Shown piece after piece: positions 22,153 to 22,566 of a stretch of 64,000 nt of DNA. Within the stretch, counting starts at the first letter, position 1; each line of letters starts with the position of its first letter. The position numbers were made by a program, and so were the translations under genes. Source of the DNA: Escherichia coli. Its GTDB lineage: Bacteria; Pseudomonadota; Gammaproteobacteria; Enterobacterales; Enterobacteriaceae. The stretch lies in NCBI RefSeq assembly GCF_048403405.1, contig NZ_CP183129.1; one strand, 5' to 3'. The notes under the pieces are model-generated. The model was not told the origin of the DNA. It saw only the letters and a program-made list of their open reading frames with translations, and ran no database searches.

Positions 22153-22566
22153 ATGTAAATTATCAATAAAAGGCGTTATTTCATTATTATTTATAATGAG
22201 TTATGAGTATTTATTTTATTACGGTTGGTAGGAATATACAAAAAGTATTTTTTCAGTTGGTTCGCTATTTTAAAAAGGAATTCATATAAGAAATAAAAAA
22301 TAAGTATGTTATTTATTGGTAGATTGAATTGACAGGGTGCAGAAATCTGAGGGTAAGAAAAATCAGCAACAACAATTCACTACATCAACAGACCAGCAAT
22401 CGAGTGCCGCGATACGCTGGAAATACCCGCAGATTGAACTGGCGGGTGGTGTGACTGGCATCAGTCAGTGATGACTTTTTAGCAAACTATGTTCGACCAG
22501 TCAGCATATTTACTGACTGGTCGAATTAATTGACAATGATGTTAACTTACTCTTTTTCCTGATGCT

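Follow-up and report, generated by a model that had tools for sequence, protein, structure and literature searches.

What became of yfbK at the yfbL-elaD junction of this Escherichia coli genome, where only 414 bp separate two genes that flank a gene of 575 codons in K-12? The window, by which we mean the whole stretch of 64,000 nucleotides analysed, is E. coli DNA running in the reverse of the K-12 order, and its genes were assigned from a list of open reading frames (ORFs) together with Pfam and NCBIfam family matches. The order in K-12 MG1655 is rbn, elaD, yfbK, yfbL, yfbM, yfbN, yfbO, yfbP, nuoN; yfbK is 1,728 nt long there, encodes 575 amino acids (aa) and lies on the strand opposite to its neighbours elaD and yfbL. 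The first-pass annotation had given an elaD-yfbK-yfbL order with a von Willebrand A (vWA) gene of about 575 codons in the middle, and the MG1655 order confirms it; the annotation had also allowed that K-12 might itself have the short spacer, which is not the case, a full yfbK being present there. The ORFs and BLASTN agree with its further statement that yfbK is absent here and that only 414 bp lie between yfbL and elaD. The features at the junction are as follows.

21181 to 22152, minus strand: yfbL, M28 peptidase, 323 aa (ORF list; Pfam Peptidase_M28, E=1.4e-25).
22153 to 22566: the yfbL-elaD spacer, 414 bp, without a long ORF.
22567 to 23784, minus strand: ElaD/SseL ORF, 405 aa (ORF list; NCBIfam NF008812, E=3e-123).

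The right edge of the spacer at 22566 is set by a premature elaD stop; taking the canonical ends of both genes instead gives a spacer of about 390 bp. We consider it highly probable that the spacer is a scar left by two deletions in yfbK, one that arose once and is now widespread, and whose left part is a sequence block either imported or very old.

The spacer was aligned by BLASTN, including searches at word size 7, to K-12, KK19-02 and EcN, and the breakpoints were inspected. All bases of 22153-22566 have a K-12 counterpart, either in yfbK or in its flanks, and no foreign insert was found. Five segments can be distinguished.

22153 to 22285: the former yfbL-yfbK divergent intergenic region, which aligns with insertions and deletions (indels) to its K-12 counterpart (GC 0.15-0.25).
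22286 to 22411, plus strand: the yfbK 5' remnant, 126 nt corresponding to yfbK nt 1-132, from alignments to the K-12, KK19-02 and EcN genes.
22412 to 22432, plus strand: a 21-nt island, ATACGCTGGAAATACCCGCAG, corresponding to yfbK nt 1456-1476, codons 486-492 (IRWKYPQ), 20/21 identical to K-12.
22433 to 22471, plus strand: the yfbK 3' remnant, nt 1690-1728 (39 nt), encoding IELAGGVTGISQ and ending in the native stop TGA at 22469-22471.
22472 to 22566: the former yfbK-elaD convergent intergenic region, containing a 14-bp hairpin.

The yfbL promoter presumably still lies within 22153-22285. The first-pass annotation had described an AT-rich spacer with a GC-richer patch at about 22380-22470 that could be a remnant; a composition scan recovers this patch (GC 0.15-0.28 over 22110-22349 and 0.43-0.55 over 22350-22499), and BLASTN against K-12 identifies it as yfbK sequence. 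YfbK is a predicted lipoprotein with vWF_A, VWA and YfbK_C domains, and nt 1-132 of its gene encode the signal peptide, the lipobox and a Q-rich linker. The 5' remnant is about 72% identical to yfbK, with ATG changed to ATA at 22286-22288, the lipobox destroyed and an early in-frame stop. Homology to yfbK is thus found at the syntenic position between yfbL and elaD in three pieces (5' 126 nt, 21-nt island and 3' 39 nt), and an intact ORF for the three domains is not, 512 of the 575 codons being gone in addition to the lost start and the early stop. These features mark the spacer as a pseudogene remnant of yfbK, not a gene.

Between the remnants, yfbK nt 133-1455 (441 codons) are deleted in frame at junction 1 (22411/22412), and nt 1477-1689 (71 codons) are deleted at junction 2, to the right of the island, also in frame and with a 1-nt G ambiguity. 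Together the two deletions take out residues 45-485 and 493-563, which span vWF_A (102-199), VWA (216-383) and nearly all of YfbK_C (393-568). Two deletions would both be in frame by chance in 1/9 of cases, which is uninformative. Judged against the K-12 and KK19-02 alleles, junction 1 has 0 nt of microhomology and junction 2 has 1 nt (G). The ancestral arrangement had yfbL and yfbK diverging and yfbK and elaD converging (yfbL <- -> yfbK -> <- elaD), and two internal, non-homologous deletions removed the two segments in frame; the joins would have been made by illegitimate recombination with essentially no microhomology. Deletion mediated by an insertion sequence (IS) or another mobile element was also considered and was rejected: there is no foreign DNA, and the whole spacer aligns to K-12 yfbK and its flanks.

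Since both ends of yfbK and an internal fragment are kept in order and in frame, and intact yfbK stands beside yfbL in the outgroups E. albertii NBRC 107761 (586 aa) and Escherichia sp. MOD1-EC7003 (581 aa), the short spacer is the derived state. The opposite polarity, in which the short spacer is ancestral and yfbK was inserted in K-12-type strains, could appeal to a region prone to insertion, as yfbN-O-P lie between nuoN and yfbM in K-12 and not here, and to the lack of elaD in EcN and other Escherichia species. We regard it as practically ruled out by the same observations, because the yfbK ends and the 21-nt piece occur in the spacer in the right order, orientation and frame and the outgroup genes occupy the same place.

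The loss of yfbK is not specific to this strain. Among 5,426 complete RefSeq E. coli genomes, a clinically biased sample, a 261-nt probe across both junctions aligns unbroken over its whole length in 2,578, and 2,514 carry full-length yfbK; the deletion is an allele present in about half of E. coli, roughly the majority state of the species. Scar carriers include O157:H7, BL21, enterotoxigenic E. coli (ETEC) and O104:H21 strains. The segments removed at junction 1 (Delta-1) and junction 2 (Delta-2) were found in 2,538 and 2,535 genomes, respectively, and K-12-type upstream sequence in 2,537; separate probes of both deleted segments detected no genome with a single deletion, the counts allowing at most a handful. 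If the gap were an artefact of sequencing or assembly (a collapsed region, for example), only the homopolymer-length differences in elaD described below would speak for it, and the same junction in 2,578 independently assembled complete genomes leaves no room for it.

All eight of the scars aligned, from diverse strains, have the same junctions, reading GCCG(C/A)G, then junction 1, ATACGCTGGAAATA(C/A)CCGC(A/T)(G/A), then junction 2, ATTGAACTGG, and are 5-10% different elsewhere. Because the junctions are identical in all aligned scars, the alignments indicate that the scar had a single origin and then diverged for a long time. K-12 and HS carry yfbK and BL21 carries the scar; as we take all three to belong to phylogroup A, the yfbK-positive and scar alleles are not split by phylogroup. 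This lack of a split points to spread of the scar by homologous recombination in the flanking sequence.

The left part of the scar differs from its surroundings in divergence, and together with the adjoining end of yfbL it forms one further feature.

22074 to 22411: hyperdivergent block, comprising yfbL codons 1-26, the intergenic region and the yfbK 5' remnant, delimited by sliding identity against K-12.

Identity to K-12 is 95-100% through yfbM and yfbL to 22073, 69-75% at 22074-22411 and 96% from 22432. The left edge is abrupt, dropping from 100% to 75% in adjacent 100-nt bins inside yfbL. Taken by region, the window is 98.7% identical to K-12 in nuoN, 97.3% in the yfbL body and 98.2% in rbn, as against 73.4% in the block; against E. 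albertii the window's yfbL body is 81.9% identical, its rbn 81.3% and its block 71.1%. Divergence of the block within E. coli is therefore of between-species level, being comparable to the block identity between E. coli and E. albertii. Identity in the block is 93-95% among yfbK-positive alleles and 88-96% among scars, as opposed to 68-77% between the two classes; the window's block is about 71-75% identical to each yfbK-positive allele. Across the collection it is bimodal, with 2,794 genomes at 85% or above, 2,537 at 60-80% and none at 76-85% among the genomes listed. Annotation of yfbK accompanies the low-identity class in every row among the genomes listed, and the scar-type block and the deletion go together in all genomes examined or listed. 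Divergence far above that of the flanks, sharp edges and the lack of listed intermediates together characterize the region as a haplotype block.

Could the roughly 28% divergence have accumulated locally once yfbK was deleted, because selection was relaxed or by hypermutation confined to the region? AT-rich DNA that has no function or is under weak constraint makes up most of the block, the block evolves fast (71% identity between K-12 and E. albertii, where neighbour genes are 81-82% identical between the window and E. albertii), and scar alleles differ from one another by 4-11% within it. However, the equally unconstrained remnants to the right (island, tail and intergenic region) are 93-96% identical to K-12, which makes in-place decay unlikely. 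In addition, the abrupt left edge sits inside functional yfbL, alleles of intermediate identity are missing from the genomes listed, and the yfbL part of the block is nearer to SCPM-O-B-8794 than to K-12. SCPM-O-B-8794 (NZ_JAATUR010000019.1), deposited as E. coli and a separate Escherichia species representative in GTDB, has the nearest block, 78-80% identical, especially in the yfbL 5' part.

The deletion haplotype, we infer, either came in from a divergent lineage of Escherichia or represents a polymorphism of great age. A more specific proposal is that this block of about 340 bp, with divergence at the E. coli-E. albertii level, a frequency of about 50% and apparently complete linkage to the deletion, reflects introgression from an unsampled Escherichia, possibly creating the deletion in the same event of homology-facilitated illegitimate recombination (HFIR), or else a balanced polymorphism, maintained over a long time, that acts on the expression or export of yfbL together with the presence of YfbK; we hold this tentatively, at slightly below an even chance. 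Two histories may be envisaged. In one, homologous allele replacement would have extended from the yfbL 5' end into yfbK, and later internal deletions would have removed the right-hand crossover. In the other, a single event of homology-facilitated illegitimate recombination would have been anchored in yfbL at about 22074 and closed by a non-homologous join at yfbK nt 1456.

Several points weigh against the reading of a once-arisen scar with an imported or very old left block. A search for a donor with the exact 21-mer ACATCAACAGACCAGCAATCG, invariant among scars, returned no match in 100,044 species-representative genomes, and the three other Escherichia representatives with yfbL, reached through YfbL-encoding loci, all lack a block of the scar type. 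No parental yfbK allele for the scar haplotype was found, so import is argued from how far the block has diverged rather than from an identified donor, and K-12-type alleles were the only reference for judging microhomology at the junctions. Neither the 21-nt island nor the 39-nt tail can be assigned to a lineage, both being too short and too conserved, and the two histories therefore fit equally well. The clinical bias of the genome sample belongs here too.

In O157:H7, BL21 and NH-21 the yfbL 5' codons are K-12-like but frameshifted, and the block begins at the yfbL start codon; this indicates that later recombination trimmed the block in these strains. Just to the left of the block in the window, yfbL 21974-22073 is 100% identical to K-12, and the rest of yfbL is 95-99% identical. 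Recombination may recently have replaced the segment 21974-22073, in a tract that stops at the block edge.

Does the spacer itself encode anything? Two features within it bear on this question.

22337 to 22471, plus strand: a 44-aa ORF with a GTG start, an in-frame fusion of the three yfbK remnants, with the translation VQKSEGKKNQQQQFTTSTDQQSSAAIRWKYPQIELAGGVTGISQ before its stop.
22491 to 22526: a perfect 14-bp inverted repeat with an 8-nt loop, with RNA folding at -26.7 and -27.1 kcal/mol on the two strands (z=-5.4 and -5.6).

The ORF is composed of VQKSEGKKNQQQQFTTSTDQQSSAA, IRWKYPQ and IELAGGVTGISQ, followed by the stop. A functional product of the spacer, either this 44-aa protein or a small RNA, could be argued from the annotation of the homologous site in TUM14771, where the NCBI Prokaryotic Genome Annotation Pipeline (PGAP) names the ORF hypothetical protein WP_001328566.1 (QVN10_RS07890), from the fact that both deletions are in frame, and from the very stable hairpin just downstream. 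On the other hand, an intact ORF is confined to the window and TUM14771, the start or frame being lost in 6/8 scar alleles (O157:H7, BL21, NH-21, 98222, ETEC4070 and Z1323CEC0006): GTG is GGG in O157:H7 and BL21, and stops or indels break the frame in NH-21, Z1323CEC0006, ETEC4070 and 98222. In most scar genomes PGAP annotates nothing at the site. The ORF has no Pfam or NCBIfam match, Rfam gives no match at E<=1 over 21900-22800 on both strands, and the spacer contains no strict sigma-70 consensus match or promoter-like site. Two in-frame deletions are unremarkable at 1/9, and the hairpin was inherited unchanged from the yfbK-elaD intergenic region. A functional product of the spacer's own is accordingly very improbable, and the 44-aa ORF, neither conserved nor matching a family and apparently an accidental fusion, was rejected as a small-protein gene.

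The hairpin is kept in K-12 and in all scars. Neither strand has a U-tract after it, so that it does not have the form of a canonical intrinsic terminator, and the one match of the terminator scan is a weak 6-pair stem at 22454-22469. It is probably a bidirectional transcript-end hairpin that now serves elaD only. Apart from this putative transcript-end hairpin and the presumed yfbL promoter, we regard the spacer as non-functional, and of YfbK itself no working part survives.

The gene to the right of the spacer carries lesions of its own.

22543 to 23765, minus strand: elaD, the ElaD/SseL deubiquitinase gene in its canonical extent, with two homopolymer frameshifts relative to intact alleles.

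In comparison with the intact alleles of K-12, O157:H7, BL21 and KK19-02, elaD has A4 for A5 at about 23696-23699, after codon 22, which shifts the frame relative to the canonical ATGATG start (23765), and A6 for A5 at 22570-22575, which creates a premature TAG at 22567-22569 in place of the canonical stop at about 22543-22545 and so costs the protein its final 8 residues. In TUM14771 elaD carries the PGAP flag 'frameshifted', and over 20500-24000 that strain and the window differ at two positions, 20553 and 21037, neither of which lies in elaD. On sequence grounds, elaD is probably a pseudogene here, hidden by the mechanical ORF of 405 aa.

PMC1847702 and PMC12575377 describe ElaD as present in most E. 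coli and absent from phylogroup B2; judging from the literature searches given below, both papers appear to deal with elaD alone and not with yfbK or its surroundings. We compared window 22433-22471 with EcN and two Escherichia representatives, including SCPM-O-B-8794. The C-terminal tail of YfbK differs between genomes with and without elaD, ending in IELADGVTDISQ and IGLAKDLDNSQN, respectively, before the stop, and the sequence downstream differs too. From the difference in tails, the elaD insertion has its left edge within the final ~25 nt of yfbK, and junction 2 (yfbK nt 1689/1690) lies about 13 nt to the left of this edge. The yfbK tail in the window is of the type of elaD-carrying genomes.

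The window's yfbL is intact, and its protein is 93.5% identical in amino acids to K-12 YfbL, with differences mostly N-terminal. The block takes in the signal-peptide region of yfbL (codons 1-26, 22074-22152), which encodes MKKITPLCFISLLLSLPLIIFC in the window as against MKKIIFAFIILFVFLLPMIIFY in K-12. On many scar haplotypes yfbL is a pseudogene, frameshifted by 4-7-nt deletions in the signal-peptide codons; examples are O157:H7 (Z1768, 1751-2368), BL21-Gold (1763-2395), NH-21 and Z1323CEC0006. In these lineages the locus is decaying further. Among the 100,044 species representatives, close relatives of YfbL were found in only three other Escherichia genomes; the next matches are 47-50% identical, in metagenome-assembled genomes of Opitutales, Nitrospirae and Thiothrix, followed by matches of about 38% in Acinetobacter. 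This distribution suggests that yfbL entered Escherichia by horizontal transfer.

The indel hotspot that the first-pass annotation had placed beside elaD is borne out by at least seven arrangements among complete E. coli genomes. The arrangements seen include the following.

K-12 type, with yfbNOP and yfbK.
yfbK present without yfbNOP (KK19-02).
Scar with intact yfbL (the window).
Scar with a yfbL pseudogene (O157:H7, BL21, NH-21, Z1323CEC0006).
Scar with further loss of yfbL (YZB902).
Scar extended by a deletion into elaD, the scar-type block being joined to a 111-nt elaD remnant (AREA_504).
yfbK present without elaD (EcN, which we take to be of phylogroup B2).
IS1 inside yfbK (CUPF12).
IS5 between yfbK and elaD (GDSC2239PM).

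SCPM-O-B-8794, which lacks elaD, has a yfbK deletion of its own at about nt 120-1587, with junctions unlike those of the E. coli scar. As this deletion is independent of the E. coli scar, yfbK has been lost more than once. Relative to the window, SCPM-O-B-8794 is 83-86% identical in the yfbL body and rbn and 96% identical in nuoN, and this discrepancy suggests that it is mosaic or mislabelled.

The neighbouring genes, assigned from ORFs and family matches, are as follows.

17516 to 19045, plus strand: nuoM.
19052 to 20509, plus strand: nuoN.
20575 to 21078, minus strand: yfbM, DUF1877.
23953 to 24888, minus strand: rbn, after which elaA and elaB follow.

The gap between nuoN and yfbM (20510-20574) is about 65 bp, where K-12 holds yfbN, yfbO and yfbP (about 2.5 kb). 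These three genes are missing from many other E. coli genomes too, and the gap is a separate presence/absence site, 1.6 kb from the yfbK scar.

The yfbK-less state is already plain in thousands of public annotations, including those of O157:H7 and BL21, and is an ordinary gene-content polymorphism. To judge by titles and abstracts, none of the matches listed in a full-text literature search for yfbK appears to concern this polymorphism of E. coli, and a term search of PMC12575377, a 2025 paper on ElaD distribution, turned up neither yfbK nor yfbL nor the flanks. At this locus K-12 does not represent the gene order of the species as a whole, about half of E. coli having lost yfbK in one old deletion that they share. 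WP_001328566.1, annotated in some scar genomes and absent from the annotation of others, is a pseudogene fragment and an apparent annotation artefact that should not count as a gene and could be flagged. Pangenome or genome-wide association signals at yfbK, yfbL and elaD will be confounded, as the block with the yfbL signal peptide is apparently tightly linked to the deletion, and further decay of elaD and yfbL on the scar haplotype adds to this. YfbK is dispensable and has been lost repeatedly, which may help in assigning its function. The hyperdivergent block also offers a small, clean case of between-species-level divergence within near-identical flanks.

Compared with K-12 yfbK (b2270), the scar has the same position, orientation, 5' end, internal 21-nt piece, 3' end and stop codon; K-12 yfbK encodes a vWA and YfbK_C protein whose function is not known, whereas the scar keeps no domain, start or lipobox. 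The yfbK-less junctions of O157:H7, BL21 and other strains have identical deletion junctions and the same overall scar, 405-419 bp long. These junctions nevertheless differ in sequence by 5-10%, and in O157:H7 and BL21 yfbL is frameshifted, its 5' end is K-12-like and the divergent block runs from the yfbL start codon, whereas in the window the block edge within yfbL is at codon 26 and the window's sub-lineage, unlike O157:H7 and BL21, keeps the 44-aa ORF. The strain-variable elaD locus belongs to the same hotspot as the scar, and the yfbK tail in the window is of the elaD type; within the haplotype that carries elaD, the deletion of yfbK was an event of its own, distinct from the presence or absence of elaD. 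Homology-facilitated illegitimate recombination has been described for natural transformation in Acinetobacter and Streptococcus pneumoniae. The scar differs from that process in having no donor, no identifiable microhomology and no established order of events, and resembles it in combining a foreign-looking segment, a sharp homologous edge (~22074), and a non-homologous join with loss of resident DNA (22411/22412).
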